Positions 21,001 to 27,935 of a stretch of 27,935 nt of DNA are shown here, piece by piece. Within the stretch, counting starts at the first letter, position 1; each line of letters begins with the position of its first letter. Position numbers: made by a program. Source of the stretch: an uncultured bacterium (GTDB lineage: Bacteria > SAR324 > NAC60-12); NCBI GenBank assembly GCA_964010765.1, contig CAXGMD010000046.1, forward strand, positions 1-27,935. Reading direction: 5' to 3'.

Positions 21001-24000
21001 CTCTATGCACCACTGGCCATTACCAAGTAACTGGACTTCGTTGTGGCGAGTATCTTCAATGTTCATCTCGATTAGGAAAGTCTTGTTGTCACCCGGACCA
21101 GTCACTCGAGCTTCAATCAAGACAGCCCTTACGGCGGCTTCAATATCTGCTTCACTTTGAATAACCCGTTGACCCTTTCCACCACCACCACCAATATGCT
21201 TAAAGCGTAGTCGTCTGCCTGGGTTTTTTGCCCAGATCTCCTTACAACAGATGAGTGTTTCTGACTGCAATTCTTCTATGCTGAACAGATCAATCTGGCG
21301 CTTGTAGGAAGCCTGCAGAATTTGCTCAGCTTGGTCCAATATGTCTGAATTGAGCTGCAAATCTGTTGGCACAGGAAGTTGATGTCGATCAATCAGGTTT
21401 TTAAGAAATTGAGAAGGATCGTTGCCTCCAGCTTTTTTCAAAAGAGTGCGTGCAGTGATTCGATCTTCACCCGGAGTTACCGATACGCTTAGCTTACGAG
21501 CCAATTGTTTGGCTTCATCTTTAGAGCCTGCCTGCTGAATCACTCTTGCACTGGGGCCAACAAAGCAAATATTCGCTTCTTCAATCTGCTTTACGAAGTC
21601 ACCGTCCTCAGCCATGAACCCATAGCCTGCAAAGAGGTGGGTGTAGTTGTGCTGTTTGCAGAGACGAAGAATTTTATCAATGCATTGCTGTCGTTCCTCT
21701 CGTGACGAGCCAACATAATCAGGGATATGGTGGACCTGTTCATGACGATTAGCGAGGAATCGCAGTTCGGGAGCAAGTGTTTGGGGATACGTGATACTGT
21801 CTTTTTCAGAAAGGAGAATGCCGTATCGTGCCCCCAGTTCCTCCAAGACTTGCATGACTTCAAGGCGAATGGGGCCGCGGCAGACGATGAGGCACTTTAC
21901 GTCCTTAAAACTAAATTGCTGTTGCCACGGGCTTGCAGGATTAAACGAAAGTGCTTTCATGAGAATTCAGAAACCAGAAGGAAATGAATAAAAAAGTTTT
22001 CAAAAATGATTCAATTTGGAAAAATTTGGGGCAGAATAGAGGGCTTTGTGGTAGGAGACAAGGTATTTGCCTTTAGATTCCTCACCCCAATATCAAGACA
22101 TTGGAATCAAAATTCAATATGATCTCAAGCAAAGGAGACCGTGTACGAAACTGCTGATATCCGCAAAGGATTGCGAATAGAACTGGATAGCGAACCCTAC
22201 GCCGTCATTGAATTTCAGTTTGTGAAGCCGGGTAAAGGAAATGCATTTACGAGGACTCGAATTCGCAATCTAATCAATGGTTCGGTATTAGATCGAACCT
22301 TTAAGACGGGTGAGAAACTAAAGCCTGCCGATACTCAGGATCGGACCATGCAGTTCCTCTATCGAGATGAGGGGGATGGGGGCTTCCATTTTATGGACAA
22401 CAGCAGTTACGAGCAGGTCGCTTTGGATGCTGATCTCGTCGGTGATGCCACAAACTACTTGATTGACAACATGGAAGTGAACGTTGCTTTCTTTCGTGAA
22501 CGACCGATCGGCATCACTCTTCCTAATTTTGTAGTTCTAGAAGTTGTTGAAGCTCCTCCAGGGGAGAAGGGCAATACGGTTACGGGTGCATCCAAGCCTG
22601 TTGTTGTTTCCACAGGTTACACCGTCAATGCACCTATGTTTGTTTCTGAGGGAGAGTTGTTGAAAATTGATACTCGAACAGGCGAATACGTAGAGCGCGT
22701 AAAAGCTTAAGGCCACTATGAAAAGCATGCTGAAGTTCAGGGATATTATCCTGGGCAAAAAAGATGATTCTCCGGATTCTTCGCAGAAAAAGGGTGACGC
22801 CAAGCAGGGCGAGGATTCACTTTCTCCGGTTGCCGCAGAACAAGTCAAAATTTTGATGGAGCTCTATCAGGAAGTTCCTTGTAATCCAAAGTCAGGGGAT
22901 CTTGAAAAACGTATTAAAAATATTGTCAAAAGTCTTCAGGGAAGCAGTTTGCTGGAAAGCATTCGTGAGACTTTCTCCGATGAGCAAGTAAAAGAGTGGA
23001 AGGAGCAATCGCAGAAAGAATTTGATGAAATGGGTAAGCTCAATCGAGCTCGAATGGAGAGTCTCATTGAGGTGGCTGATGAAGGCATGCGCCAAGTCGT
23101 TTACGAAAGTATTTTTATTTTTGATGTCAATCCGTCAGATCAACCCAATCTCGATATCACTTATAAGAAGGGTGTTGATCCAGAGACTGGAAAACCAATG
23201 ATTCACCGTGATCGCTATCATGTATTTTGTGAGAATGCGATGCATGGTATTGATGGAATCGATCGTTGGTTACCAGAGCAGTCCAAACGTGAGGGGGAAG
23301 GTAATTGGATGGCCCATCTGCAGGAGCAGTTTGGTGAACTGGTCAATGATTTTGGGAAAAGCGAGAAGCCAATTGTGCAAACACTTAGCACGATTGGGAG
23401 TCTTGGAGGTATTGGCCACAAGCCTGATTCTGACGTTGATGCACAGGTGATTTTTGGAACAGAGCCCCGATATGAACACAATTGGACTGATGCTGACTTC
23501 TTCATTGCCTTGGCCTTCAAGATCATAAGTTCTGCTTATGATCGTTATCTTCTTCAATTTCCAGAGGAAAAGCGAGAACAGCTAAAGCAAAAAGTGAAAG
23601 ATCAGATGATCGAGGAGCATGGTGAAGCTCTTAGCCCTGAACAGCAGAAAATCATCGACATCATCTTTCCAAGTACCTACACACTATTGATGCGCAAAAC
23701 CTGTCGGGCTTTGATCAGCAAGATGGAGCCGGGCAAGCAAATGCAGTTCTTCTGGTCTCAAATTCCACTAATCTTACGCAAGTTGCCAGAGGGTGACCTG
23801 TATAGGAACGCACTGATTCTCTTTTTTCCTTTTCTCAAAAACATCCCAGCTAGGAAACTTCAAGGAAGCTGCTTTCCAAATTCTGTTACTTCAATGGATG
23901 CTAATGCTGCCCTTGGGCGATTGATCATTTTCTATCGTGATCGTGTATTGGGCCAACGAGTAGTGATGAAGTTATTGGAAGAGCCGGCCAAGGCAGCTGG

Positions 24001-27000: not shown

Positions 27001-27935
27001 CCAAATCCTGAAGCCCATTTTGATCTAATTCAATGTGATCAGGGATACCTGGTAACCTCACCAGAATTTCAAATGAAACGTATGCTGGTTGGCGGATTTG
27101 AAAAGATTTACCAAATCAGTGCCTGCTACCGAGGAAAGGAAGTCGGTCAATGGCACAATCCAGAGTTTACGATGCTCGAATGGTATCGTGTTGGGGAGAA
27201 TTGGCACCGATTGTGTCAGGACATTCAAGAGATAACTCAGTGCCTTCCAGGGGTATGGATTGATTCAAAGCAACATAAAATGTTGGAAGGTGAATGGAAA
27301 CTTACAACAGTCAATGATCTTCTTCAGGAATTTTGGCAATTTGAAATACGACCTACAGATCAAGCAGGAGATCTCCTCGAAAAGCTCAAGGAAAATGGTC
27401 ATGAAGACTGGATCAATCAGCAAAGGATCAATGGAGAATCTTTCGTAGTTATTTTTGGCAGGATTTGGGATGAACTCGAACAAAAACTTGGGTGGGAAAG
27501 ACCTTGCTTGGTCACAGATTGGCCTCCTCAACTGGCTAGCCTCGCCCAGCTCACTCCAAATGGCCTTGCCGAAAGAGTGGAATGCTATGTTCAAGGAATG
27601 GAGATCGCCAATGGCTTTGGTGAACTGACGGACCCTAATGAGCAGCAAAAACGCTTTGAAATAGAATTAACCCATCGGAGCCAGGTCGGAAAATCAGATG
27701 TTGGGTTAGATCACCAATTTCTTGACGCTTTGTGGGAAGGGATGCCTCCAAGTTGTGGGATGGCACTAGGTATAGAGCGCCTATTGATTTGGCTGTTGGA
27801 TGTTCCATCCATTGAGAATGTGATGGCTTTTACGGAATCTGAAATTTTCTGATTTTTCTTGTTGACTTAATCAGAGTACTTTTATATTCTCATAAGCTTT
27901 CGCGAGTTATCGTGAGTTCTTTGAGAGTCGATGTG

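Follow-up and report, generated by a model that had tools for sequence, protein, structure and literature searches.

A giant cyclase-related protein encoded with efp and epmA in a marine SAR324 family

The Pol-beta nucleotidyltransferase (NTase) superfamily is defined by the motif hG[GS]x9-13Dh[DE]h, and some of its members, in the manner of GlnE, GlnD and MntA, modify proteins. Class I adenylate cyclases are described in PMC12104821 as a narrow, mostly gammaproteobacterial class that lacked an experimental structure as of 2025; the same source, citing Linder (2008), gives S103, S113, D114 and D116 as key residues of CyaA. For elongation factor P (EF-P), the genes epmB or earP are reported often to adjoin efp and/or the ligase gene (PMC11388002). 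The gene analyzed here, designated X, resembles those of the EpmB, EpmC, EarP and YmfI pathways in this position, whereas its product is unrelated to theirs in sequence (no Pfam or NCBIfam row of X corresponds to EpmC or to EpmB, a KamA-type radical SAM protein) and is dispensable for the presence of EpmA, as seen in genera g2 and g4.

X was studied in a window of 27,935 nt, the whole stretch of DNA that was analyzed, from an uncultured bacterium of the SAR324 family NAC60-12, and it is the only copy of its kind within the window (Table 1). The re-read coordinates bear out the three ORFs of the first-pass annotation, which lie on the plus strand with 7 nt between efp and X and 77 nt between X and epmA. 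The EF-P loop at this locus is KPGKGNAF, with Lys32 as the modifiable residue, and EpmA carries an extension of ~90 aa N-terminal of its class II synthetase core, the TIGR00462 match spanning residues 92-399. The GTG start of efp is preceded by a ribosome-binding site (AAGGAGA). A consensus scan found no terminator-like sites between efp, X, and epmA; across the region it found 7 terminator-like hairpins (5.6 expected in shuffles) and 4 promoter-like sites (8.3 expected), so that the efp promoter-like site alone is not significant as a promoter match. There were no Rfam matches at E<=0.1 over positions 19000-27935, and the tRNA scan returned 0 genes. RNA-library contigs cover the whole stretch and span both gene junctions in 4/4 libraries, but the same contigs enter the divergent gene upstream, so DNA carry-over is possible and the contigs prove neither one joint message nor transcription itself.

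Table 1. Features of the efp-X-epmA region, with positions in the window
Feature	Positions	Strand	Remarks
Promoter-like site AAGACA-17-TATGAT, 5' of efp	22095-22123	+	Consensus match only
efp, elongation factor P	22141-22710	+	189 aa, GTG start; TIGR00038 234.7 bits (cut-off 185.8)
X, class-I-adenylate-cyclase-like nucleotidyltransferase (predicted), whole gene	22718-26557	+	1279 aa
X cyclase-like region 1, residues ~86-260	22973-23497	+	Aligns with E. coli CyaA ~13-128 (hhalign)
NTase catalytic motif (predicted) G227-S228-L-G-G-I-G-H234-K235-P-D-S238-D239-V-D241	23396-23440	+	Conserved in X and in X+M
X insert A, residues 261-520	23498-24277	+	Less conserved; ~170 residues without M counterpart
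X cyclase-like region 2, residues 521-867	24278-25318	+	Most conserved block; collinear with CyaA ~133-270
X insert B, residues 868-976	25319-25645	+	Charged; no counterpart in M
X C-terminal domain, residues 977-1279	25646-26557	+	Conserved, common to M; no known family
X-epmA spacer, 77 nt	26558-26634	+	No terminator-like site; fold not significant (z -1.19)
epmA, EF-P-lysine ligase	26635-27852	+	405 aa; TIGR00462 289.5 bits (cut-off 286.9)
Terminator-like hairpin 3' of epmA	27899-27916	+	Consensus match only

The statement that Pfam and NCBIfam give no row for X holds above the cut-offs. Its sole Pfam row, PF12633 at residues 213-245, stays below threshold (E 0.072, 13.5 bits versus a cut-off of 27), in line with the earlier remark that the NTase match of this particular protein is weak, and NCBIfam gave 0 rows at E<=1. 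The 42 homologues reported before were found again; they are 1170-1337 aa long, and the named ones, all annotated as hypothetical, come from 'SAR324 cluster bacterium' or 'Deltaproteobacteria bacterium TL4'. Across these 42 sequences the residues G227-S-x-G-G-I-G-H-K..S238..D241 indeed never vary, and 90% or more of the sequences retain D239. The superfamily motif can be read directly from X as I-G227-S-x10-D239-V-D241-A. Searches with X found nothing at 0.85 or above in the ESM Atlas (whole protein), nothing below E 0.15 in a PDB profile search (a kanamycin NTase chain appeared at E 0.73), and no match by tblastn among plasmids or phages.

The NTase core had been regarded as the only recognisable part of X, which proved wrong: X contains collinear cyclase-like regions and is homologous over nearly its full length to a second family, M. 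The M proteins (at least 195, ~900-1060 aa, all hypothetical) occur throughout the SAR324 phylum and carry PF12633. In hhalign, X residues 65-1189 align with M residues 42-911 over 806 columns (probability 100, E 1.4e-55); M representatives were recovered by hmmsearch at E 1e-46 to 1e-19, and a profile search run exhaustively over 1.84 billion proteins yielded 114 matches, 51 of them at E<=1e-30, all to members of X and M. X and M form a superfamily found only in SAR324, with full-length collinear homology. Both share the C-terminal domain and the same conserved residues: in an alignment of 115 X+M sequences, most of the NTase motif (S228, S238, D239, and D241 included) as well as E556, K684, E701, and W756 either never vary or are retained by 90% or more. 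M differs in lacking inserts A and B and in not adjoining efp in the 11 M loci examined. The longer X form (~1170-1340 aa) may have arisen in one family through two large insertions (~282-505 and 868-976), followed by an expansion of paralogues.

Region 2 of X, its most conserved block, includes E556, R565, G581-S582, D591, and R680-E-S-E-K..N-L-P-K-A-L-L-N..W-W-x-E701. Part of insert A is missing from the efp-linked copies of genus g12. Despite its lower conservation, this insert is strongly constrained among same-genus genomes (dN/dS 0.012-0.017), and values across all four regions of X range from 0.012 to 0.066. For whole genes the within-genus values are 0.023-0.038 for X, 0.009-0.029 for efp, and 0.12-0.15 for epmA; purifying selection on X is about as strong as on efp. 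The C-terminal domain matched nothing in Pfam or in the PDB profile search, and the ESM Atlas gave nothing usable for residues 861-1279; among shorter proteins, residues 960-1279 retrieved only fragments of X.

That X is a Pol-beta-type NTase whose nearest relative is class I adenylate cyclase, as proposed earlier, is supported by matches to PF12633 and NF006981 and by collinear motifs. PF12633 is matched by 36/38 X homologues at E<=0.01, and 14/38 reach 27 bits, over ~35-50 residues only. NF006981 is matched at E<=0.05 by 20/38 X homologues, the best being P0032 (residues 104-237 to model positions 34-140, E 4.6e-11), while one, P0016, matches through region 2 (residues 504-593 to positions 141-228); all four M proteins tested match it as well (E 8.4e-6 to 9.5e-13, positions ~20-137 or ~147-293). 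Nonetheless, X and M score 10-20 times below the cut-offs of the class I cyclase models, with at most 41.9 bits for X homologues and 47.5 bits for M against an NF006981 equivalog cut-off of 802 bits. In hhalign, both directly and by way of M, X is collinear with the catalytic region of CyaA, and CyaA S103, S113, D114, and D116 align with S228, S238, D239, and D241 of X; the E-values against CyaA (0.012 and 0.22 for X, 0.0025 and 0.18 for M) are weak by construction, the CyaA profile comprising 9 enterobacterial sequences only (Neff 1.2). Of five key residues in CyaA, X thus retains four. The fifth, Trp118, which follows D-x-D and is essential in CyaA (SDLDIWV), is not kept, the equivalent residue being Q243 in X (SDVDAQV); M has SDLDLQV. 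The order of motifs is common to X and CyaA, namely GS..SDxD, E-x-x-F-F, R..R, GS, D, and LPKALLN (SPYKAVLK in CyaA). E556, kept in at least 90% of X+M sequences, falls opposite CyaA E150 in weak alignments and is a candidate third metal carboxylate.

Judged from its sequence, X is distantly related to the class I adenylate cyclases but, because PF01295 (Adenylate_cycl) was undetected, not one of them: this model found nothing at E<=0.01 in the 45 family genomes and gave no row for X, whereas the E. coli control matched. The two resemble each other as large soluble proteins with an N-terminal helical region and a long non-catalytic C-terminal part, although no similarity was detected between the C-terminal domain of X and the regulatory domain of CyaA (best E 0.68). 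Class I cyclases differ in lacking the extra inserts of ~170 and ~106 residues, in belonging to Gammaproteobacteria rather than SAR324, and in their genomic setting, X being placed in an efp-epmA operon. GlnE, GlnD, MntA, and the ANT enzymes have the same core motif, and a few X homologues match GlnE, MntA, or ANT marginally (E 0.007-0.04), but the homology ends at the motif and class I cyclase models give higher scores throughout.

Full-length X was found in 37/44 other genomes of the family and in none of the 43 genomes of other SAR324 families, which agrees with its reported restriction to NAC60-12; outside the family, weak matches to the X query (E 1e-13 to 1e-6) in 33/43 genomes correspond to M-sized ORFs of ~930-1080 aa. 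Up to about 8 X/M copies occur per genome. On the tree of X copies, a U clade is characterized by the order flgA-flgH-X-hyp410-tilS, hyp410 adjoining X in 17/20 of its loci. By blastp, hyp410 and hyp503 gave nothing below E 0.03 against X, EpmA, or M, and PADLOC returned 0 rows for X, a U-clade copy, another unlinked copy, two M proteins, and hyp410. The U neighbourhood is as conserved as that of efp and epmA though functionally mixed, so that in this lineage a conserved gene order carries little weight by itself. Stable neighbourhoods of M include M-mnmG-radical SAM and adk-M; the presence of X or M copies next to tilS, mnmG, and adk is as compatible with an NTase directed at RNA or translation as it is with a cyclase. 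Cyclic-nucleotide genes adjoin 3/14 scanned unlinked X copies, all three outside the U clade: a cNMP-binding GGDEF protein (L040), a cNMP-binding histidine kinase with a response regulator and a class III cyclase (L041), and an Apyc1-like metallo-beta-lactamase (L043). This association is anecdotal.

X lies beside efp and epmA on the same strand in 8/8 same-genus genomes and in 15/16 genomes of 9 further genera, the sole exception being G021 of genus g4. The three genes had been said to stay together in most genera with a changing order; we count 9/12 genera (24 genomes) and two orders, efp-X-epmA in g1, g9, g11, and g12, and X-efp-epmA in g5, g6, g7, g8, and g10. The genera that retain a linked X share only 34-44% protein identity with each other, and the outer flanks of the three genes are not common between genera. 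In g9, g11, and g12, X either overlaps the start of epmA or stops 0-8 nt short of it, which suggests translational coupling. The linked/unlinked label needs 4 changes on the X tree, versus 15.4 for shuffled labels. Monophyly of the linked copies is rejected by the AU test (p 5.5e-5, for a group named after the tree was seen). The evidence supports a genuine and ancient tie of X to efp-epmA, one closer than background synteny would give.

The exceptions concern three genera. The unlinked position of X in g2 had been listed as an objection; it largely dissolves because g2 carries only the U-clade paralogue (X is present in 13 g2 genomes, all U-type as sampled, 9/9 tree rows), while the part that stands is that efp and epmA are adjacent there with no linked X, as they are in G021. 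The genus said to lack both X and epmA is g3 (2 genomes), where this was confirmed, only LysRS-like matches of ~220-229 bits being present in place of true epmA; g3 also lacks hyp410, another family-specific protein family. Both g2 and g4 have EpmA but no linked X, and outside the family EpmA occurs in 32/43 genomes, all lacking X.

With respect to the remaining EF-P modification genes, there is no match above the EpmB cut-off across the 45 genomes of the family, which upholds that part of the earlier claim; the own genome does, however, encode an AblA-like member of the KamA family, located on a different contig and broken across two reading frames. Of the other family genomes, 6/44 have KamA-like genes, none of them in g2, versus 33/43 genomes of other SAR324 families. 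EpmC was not found in the own genome; a search there for the EarP family gave no match, though its control gave none either, which makes that negative uninformative. The EF-P loop KPGKG(N/T)AFTRT is identical with or without X or EpmA. A replacement of EpmB by X was considered and rejected, as NTase chemistry is unsuited to that step and g2 lacks both a linked X and KamA-like genes.

We tentatively favour the reading of X as a catalytically competent Pol-beta-fold NTase of the class I cyclase lineage, co-expressed with efp and epmA and acting in signalling or regulation. By analogy with CyaA, G227-S228 and K235 would hold the NTP, two Mg2+ would be held by D239, D241, and probably E556, and attack of the 3'-OH on the alpha-phosphate would yield a cyclic nucleotide and pyrophosphate; regulation or partner binding may fall to the inserts and to the last 300 residues. 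One X paralogue lineage, including the copy in the window, is fixed in the efp-epmA operon and would be made with EF-P and EpmA, so that expression of the enzyme, and possibly its activity, would be tied to the EF-P/EpmA module, X not being obligatory for EF-P lysylation. A cyclase reading has to contend with the 12 class III cyclase domains and few cNMP-binding proteins (4, with 5 domain matches) of the own genome, which leave no obvious need for another source of cAMP. That X is instead a non-catalytic scaffold with no more than an NTase shape is highly improbable: it would accord with the lost Trp118 and the sub-threshold PF12633 match of this protein, but not with the invariance of G227, S228, S238, and D241, the retention of D239 and of most of these residues across X and M, and very strong purifying selection.

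What connects X with EF-P modification is gene order, and the earlier proposal that X modifies or regulates the EF-P system keeps its footing in the conserved linkage while losing it in g2, g4, the invariant loop, and g3. It is possible but doubtful that X acts directly on EF-P or EpmA, by nucleotidylating EF-P, its (lysyl-)Lys32 or EpmA, or by supplying or replacing a missing step. Such an activity would explain a linkage that persists in two orders with unconserved outer flanks and tight X-epmA junctions, the scarcity of KamA-like genes, the unmet EpmB cut-off and absent EpmC, and the joint absence of X and epmA from g3; protein-modifying Pol-beta NTases exist, and the marginal GlnE, MntA, and ANT matches would suit one. 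Yet efp and epmA do without a linked X in 13 g2 genomes and G021, the loop does not change with X or EpmA, an aminomutase reaction is impossible for an NTase, and the co-absence in g3, which lacks hyp410 too, is a single event. The U paralogue keeps an equally conserved order with unrelated genes, and the homology of X points to cyclase-type chemistry rather than to a known EF-P modification enzyme or a protein-modifying NTase. It is unlikely that X has no functional tie to EF-P at all and is a housekeeping enzyme, such as an RNA- or tRNA-directed NTase, placed there by descent and shared expression. The paralogues and M proteins in other stable housekeeping neighbourhoods, the match of one M protein to the poly(A)-polymerase-like palm family PF22600 (E 5.4e-4), the AU result with its post hoc group, and an EpmA that works without linked X in g2 and g4 would all agree with this; an adjacency that outlasted rearrangement and the loss of outer synteny, the suggested translational coupling, and the few label changes on the tree speak against it. 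It seems quite unlikely that the efp-linked X is a new, third type of factor in EF-P biology that binds EF-P and/or EpmA through its lineage-specific inserts or C-terminal domain and either attaches a nucleotide-derived group to (lysyl-)EF-P or EpmA or converts the state of the EF-P/EpmA module into a cyclic-nucleotide signal, with EpmA operating without EpmB or EpmC.

X and M appear to constitute a deep, unannotated SAR324 branch of the class I cyclase lineage with new architectures. The lineage in question has EpmA without the usual supplier of beta-lysine, and if X acts on or senses EF-P or EpmA, it would represent a new layer of control or modification on a universal translation factor. 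If X has no EF-P role, it would still be a well-defined and testable orphan enzyme family in an abundant ocean group. In either case, a giant conserved cyclase-related enzyme inside the efp-epmA operon of one marine SAR324 family is worth testing.

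The three open reading frames lie on one strand at the positions and with the spacing that the first-pass annotation had assigned to them, 7 nt separating efp from X (the gene for a 1279-aa protein resembling class I adenylate cyclases) and 77 nt separating X from epmA. Upstream of efp there is a promoter-like site together with a ribosome-binding site, and downstream of epmA a terminator-like site; all were recognized as consensus matches only, and the consensus search found no terminator-like site between the three genes. In four RNA libraries, contigs with 95-100% identity to the window span the whole stretch and bridge both gene junctions, and they also extend into the divergent upstream gene, so that DNA carry-over is possible. 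X is a genuine gene under strong constraint: compared with four relatives within the genus, its dN/dS is 0.023-0.038 (0.009-0.029 for efp and 0.12-0.15 for epmA). When X was divided into four regions, every one of them, the less conserved insert 261-520 and the last 400 residues among them, gave a value of 0.012-0.066. The window contig (end 27935) and the contig of a relative in the genus with 98% identity (G032:C28, end 60251) both stop ~80-150 nt past epmA, which suggests hard-to-assemble sequence downstream of this gene.

Features of the efp-X-epmA locus and its surroundings in the window
Feature	Position	Strand	Basis or remark
918-aa protein	19204-21960	-	Divergent from efp
efp	22141-22710	+	ORF; above NCBIfam equivalog cut-off
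X, 1279 aa	22718-26557	+	ORF
25-nt direct repeat in X, copy 1	23015-23039		Codes K-E-F-D-E-M-G-K (X residues 100-107)
25-nt direct repeat in X, copy 2	26498-26522		Codes K-D-F-D-E-I-G-K (X residues 1261-1268)
epmA	26635-27852	+	ORF; above NCBIfam equivalog cut-off
EpmA extension, residues 1-90	26635-26904		No Pfam family covers the extension

Two further features of the locus are listed in the table. The 918-aa protein, found beside efp in genus g1 (that of the window) only, contains the N-terminal, ATP-grasp and C-terminal domains of biotin carboxylase and a C-terminal biotinyl domain, with a middle part of ~230 aa without assignment, and every NCBIfam equivalog score falls far under its cut-off. 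The two copies of the direct repeat within X are 84% identical and may be due to chance.

Coordinates of X, epmA and efp were compared in 45 genomes, complemented by tblastn on fetched loci. As previously proposed, the three genes are linked while their order changes among the genera of the family. The order efp-X-epmA was observed in g1 (9/9 genomes, including the window), g9, g11, and g12 (3/3 each), and X-efp-epmA in g5 (2/2), g6, g7, g8, and g10 (1/1 each). In one g1 genome (G035) the arrangement is spread across two contigs, and in one g11 genome (G039) X occupies two reading frames. The stop codon of X and the start codon of epmA overlap or lie 0-8 nt apart in g9, g11, and g12. In g2 (13 genomes with X) and g4 (one genome), efp and epmA are adjacent and X is located elsewhere. 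Flanking ORFs outside the triad are common only to members of one genus, and thus the triad outlasts the surrounding synteny; the only flank common to different genera is shared by g11 and g2, in which epmA is followed by a small DUF6122 gene (L042:1928-2293, L048:8078-8422, L064:2332-2640). The joint absence of X and epmA from a single genus was borne out for g3 (two genomes), but it is not a specific sign, because the family of hyp410, a ~410-aa hypothetical protein discussed below, is absent there too.

The NCBIfam models give no row for X at E<=1, and its sole Pfam row is a sub-threshold match to PF12633 (residues 213-245, E 0.072). A word-index search yielded 42 homologues, 1170-1337 aa long, which without exception come from SAR324-type sources and are named hypothetical. 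A profile search with residues 41-870, covering 1.84 billion representative proteins (E<=0.001), matched 114 proteins, all of which belong either to the X family (fragments and about 15 full-length representatives) or to a second SAR324 family of ~900-1060 aa, here called M (E 1e-46 to 1e-19). The latter was first visible as weak extra matches in the genomes of larger relatives, at X positions ~105-270, ~505-860, and ~964-1070. Profile-profile alignment places X 65-1189 on M 42-911 (probability 100, E 1.4e-55), which shows that the two are homologous over nearly their full length, X having ~170 extra residues within 282-505 and ~106 at 868-976. The nucleotidyltransferase core can thus no longer be regarded as the sole recognizable part of X. 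At least 195 M proteins, all hypothetical, are labelled SAR324, Lambdaproteobacteria, or Deltaproteobacteria. The restriction of X to the family NAC60-12 holds in the phylum search: full-length X was found in 37/44 other genomes of the family, and outside it only weak matches to M-sized ORFs were detected (33/43 genomes). The window's genome contains one X and no M.

PF12633 is matched by 36/38 X homologues at E<=0.01, the matched part being confined to ~35-50 residues around the motif; its 27-bit cut-off is reached by 14 of the 38. NF006981, the class I cyclase model of NCBIfam, is matched at E<=0.05 by more than one-half (20/38), most strongly with E 4.6e-11 (model positions 34-140), and in one homologue residues 504-593 align with positions 141-228. 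All four M proteins compared match this model (E 8.4e-6 to 9.5e-13, positions ~20-137 or ~147-293). The alignments of M and of X with CyaA, the class I adenylate cyclase of E. coli, are each weak (E 0.0025-0.22; the CyaA profile was shallow), yet they are collinear and their motifs are consistent. Thus, IGSLGGIGHKPDSDVDAQV of X is aligned with MGSTSSVGQSCSSDLDIWV of CyaA, E556-x-x-Y-F with E150-V-S-F-F, NILRKQRAG with NRFRHNESG, EGSMAY with DCGSTQH, and LND591 with LLD184, and NLPKALLN of both M and X with SPYKAVLK. A 2025 paper names S103, S113, D114, D116, and W118 as key residues of CyaA and describes the enzyme as having no experimental structure (PMC12104821, the residues after Linder, 2008). 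Four of the five are kept in X, as S228, S238, D239, and D241, whereas W118 is replaced by Q243, Gln being found there in M too. X is a distant relative of the class I cyclases with an apparently intact active site, and not a member of that family, because the main class I domain (PF01295) had no match in 45 genomes of the family.

In a tree of 46 X copies (omitting six near-identical or partial g1 rows, L028 with an internal stop, and L056 with a frame change), a well-supported clade, U (SH-aLRT 99), unites all nine sampled g2 copies with the unlinked copies of G038 (g1), g9, g11, and g12. The linked copies fall into four supported groups: g1; g9, g11, and g12; g5, g7, and g8; g6 and g10. The label linked or unlinked needs to change only 4 times on the tree, compared with 15.4 for shuffled labels, a difference that speaks for clustering only, since kin share labels. 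A single clade for every linked copy was rejected by AU tests (p 5.5e-5), as was one joining the linked copies of g1 with those of g2 (p 2.2e-5); these two groups were named once the tree had been seen. Therefore g2 has the U paralogue only and lacks the linked one, and the earlier statement that g2 keeps X unlinked must be revised. The window's genome is the reverse of g2, with the linked copy only.

Copies of clade U (L045, L049, L062, and other loci) lie in the order flgA-flgH-X(U)-hyp410-tilS, kept across g2, g9, and g11, and hyp410, which belongs to no known family, adjoins X in 17/20 U loci. The hyp410 family is multi-copy (2-13 matches per genome, in 42/45 genomes); the window's genome retains a hyp410 gene (C4:33434-34669), its U copy being gone. 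The genes of this locus have plainly unrelated functions, and their conserved order makes gene order a doubtful guide to function in this lineage. Among 14 unlinked copies whose flanks were scanned, three, all outside clade U, adjoin genes connected with cyclic nucleotides. At L040 the neighbour is a cNMP-binding GGDEF protein; at L041 there are three, namely a class III cyclase, a response regulator, and a cNMP-binding histidine kinase; and at L043 it is an Apyc1-like metallo-beta-lactamase. Genes for M (~940 aa, L152-L162) recur in three contexts, namely adk-M, M-mnmG-radical SAM (CofH/MqnC-like), and FecR-domain protein-M-hyp503 (a 503-aa hypothetical protein).

The EF-P loop KPGKG(N/T)AFTRT is identical in linked, unlinked, and g3 genomes. 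EpmA has an N-terminal extension of ~90-130 aa ending in a conserved G-D-x-L-R-W-R (alignment A6). Families f1 and f2 of the phylum have long EpmA frames (about 370-540 aa); lengths of ~300-340 aa are found in f4-f6 and most of f7 (exceptions 377-540 aa). In g12 (L058:6596-7828, L059:6645-7913) the extension includes a PPPPP run, and translation of the EF-P ligase may itself be EF-P-dependent there. EpmA (E<=1e-75) was detected in 36/44 other genomes of the family and 32/43 of other families, and KamA-family genes (E<=1e-30) in 6/44 vs 33/43. The reported absence of EpmB was corroborated, its cut-off being passed in only 4/88 genomes, all from f2, and thus EpmA without EpmB is the rule across the phylum. 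The KamA-like gene of the window's genome, on another contig and split over two frames, best fits the lysine 2,3-aminomutase model AblA. The genes after it encode two Ddl-like ATP-grasp ligases and a RimI-like GNAT (whole locus G000:C81:7881-11888; L066:2881-6888), a possible beta-amino-acid peptide cluster. No EpmC was found in the window's genome.

No paper on the X family or its linkage to efp and epmA was found among the listed ones on SAR324, EF-P, and adenylate cyclase, judged by titles and abstracts, and searches for PF12633 or the domain name Adenyl_cycl_N returned none. Among the papers listed by the EpmA/EpmB literature search, only the EpmAB/C, EarP, and YmfI types of EF-P modification appear, the only ones described in the available portion of PMC11388002. 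EpmA without EpmB leaves room for a non-canonical modification, yet does not point to X. Direct modification or regulation of EF-P or EpmA by X, with which the persistent triad is consistent, has to be set beside the unchanged EF-P loop of g3 and is rather improbable. That X is simply co-resident with efp and epmA recalls the U locus, where order is kept among unrelated genes; considering also the overlapping or nearly abutting X and epmA frames of three genera, we regard it as unlikely. Our preferred reading, held tentatively and at somewhat short of even confidence, is that X would be an active cyclase-like nucleotidyltransferase, co-expressed with efp and epmA and regulatory in nature.
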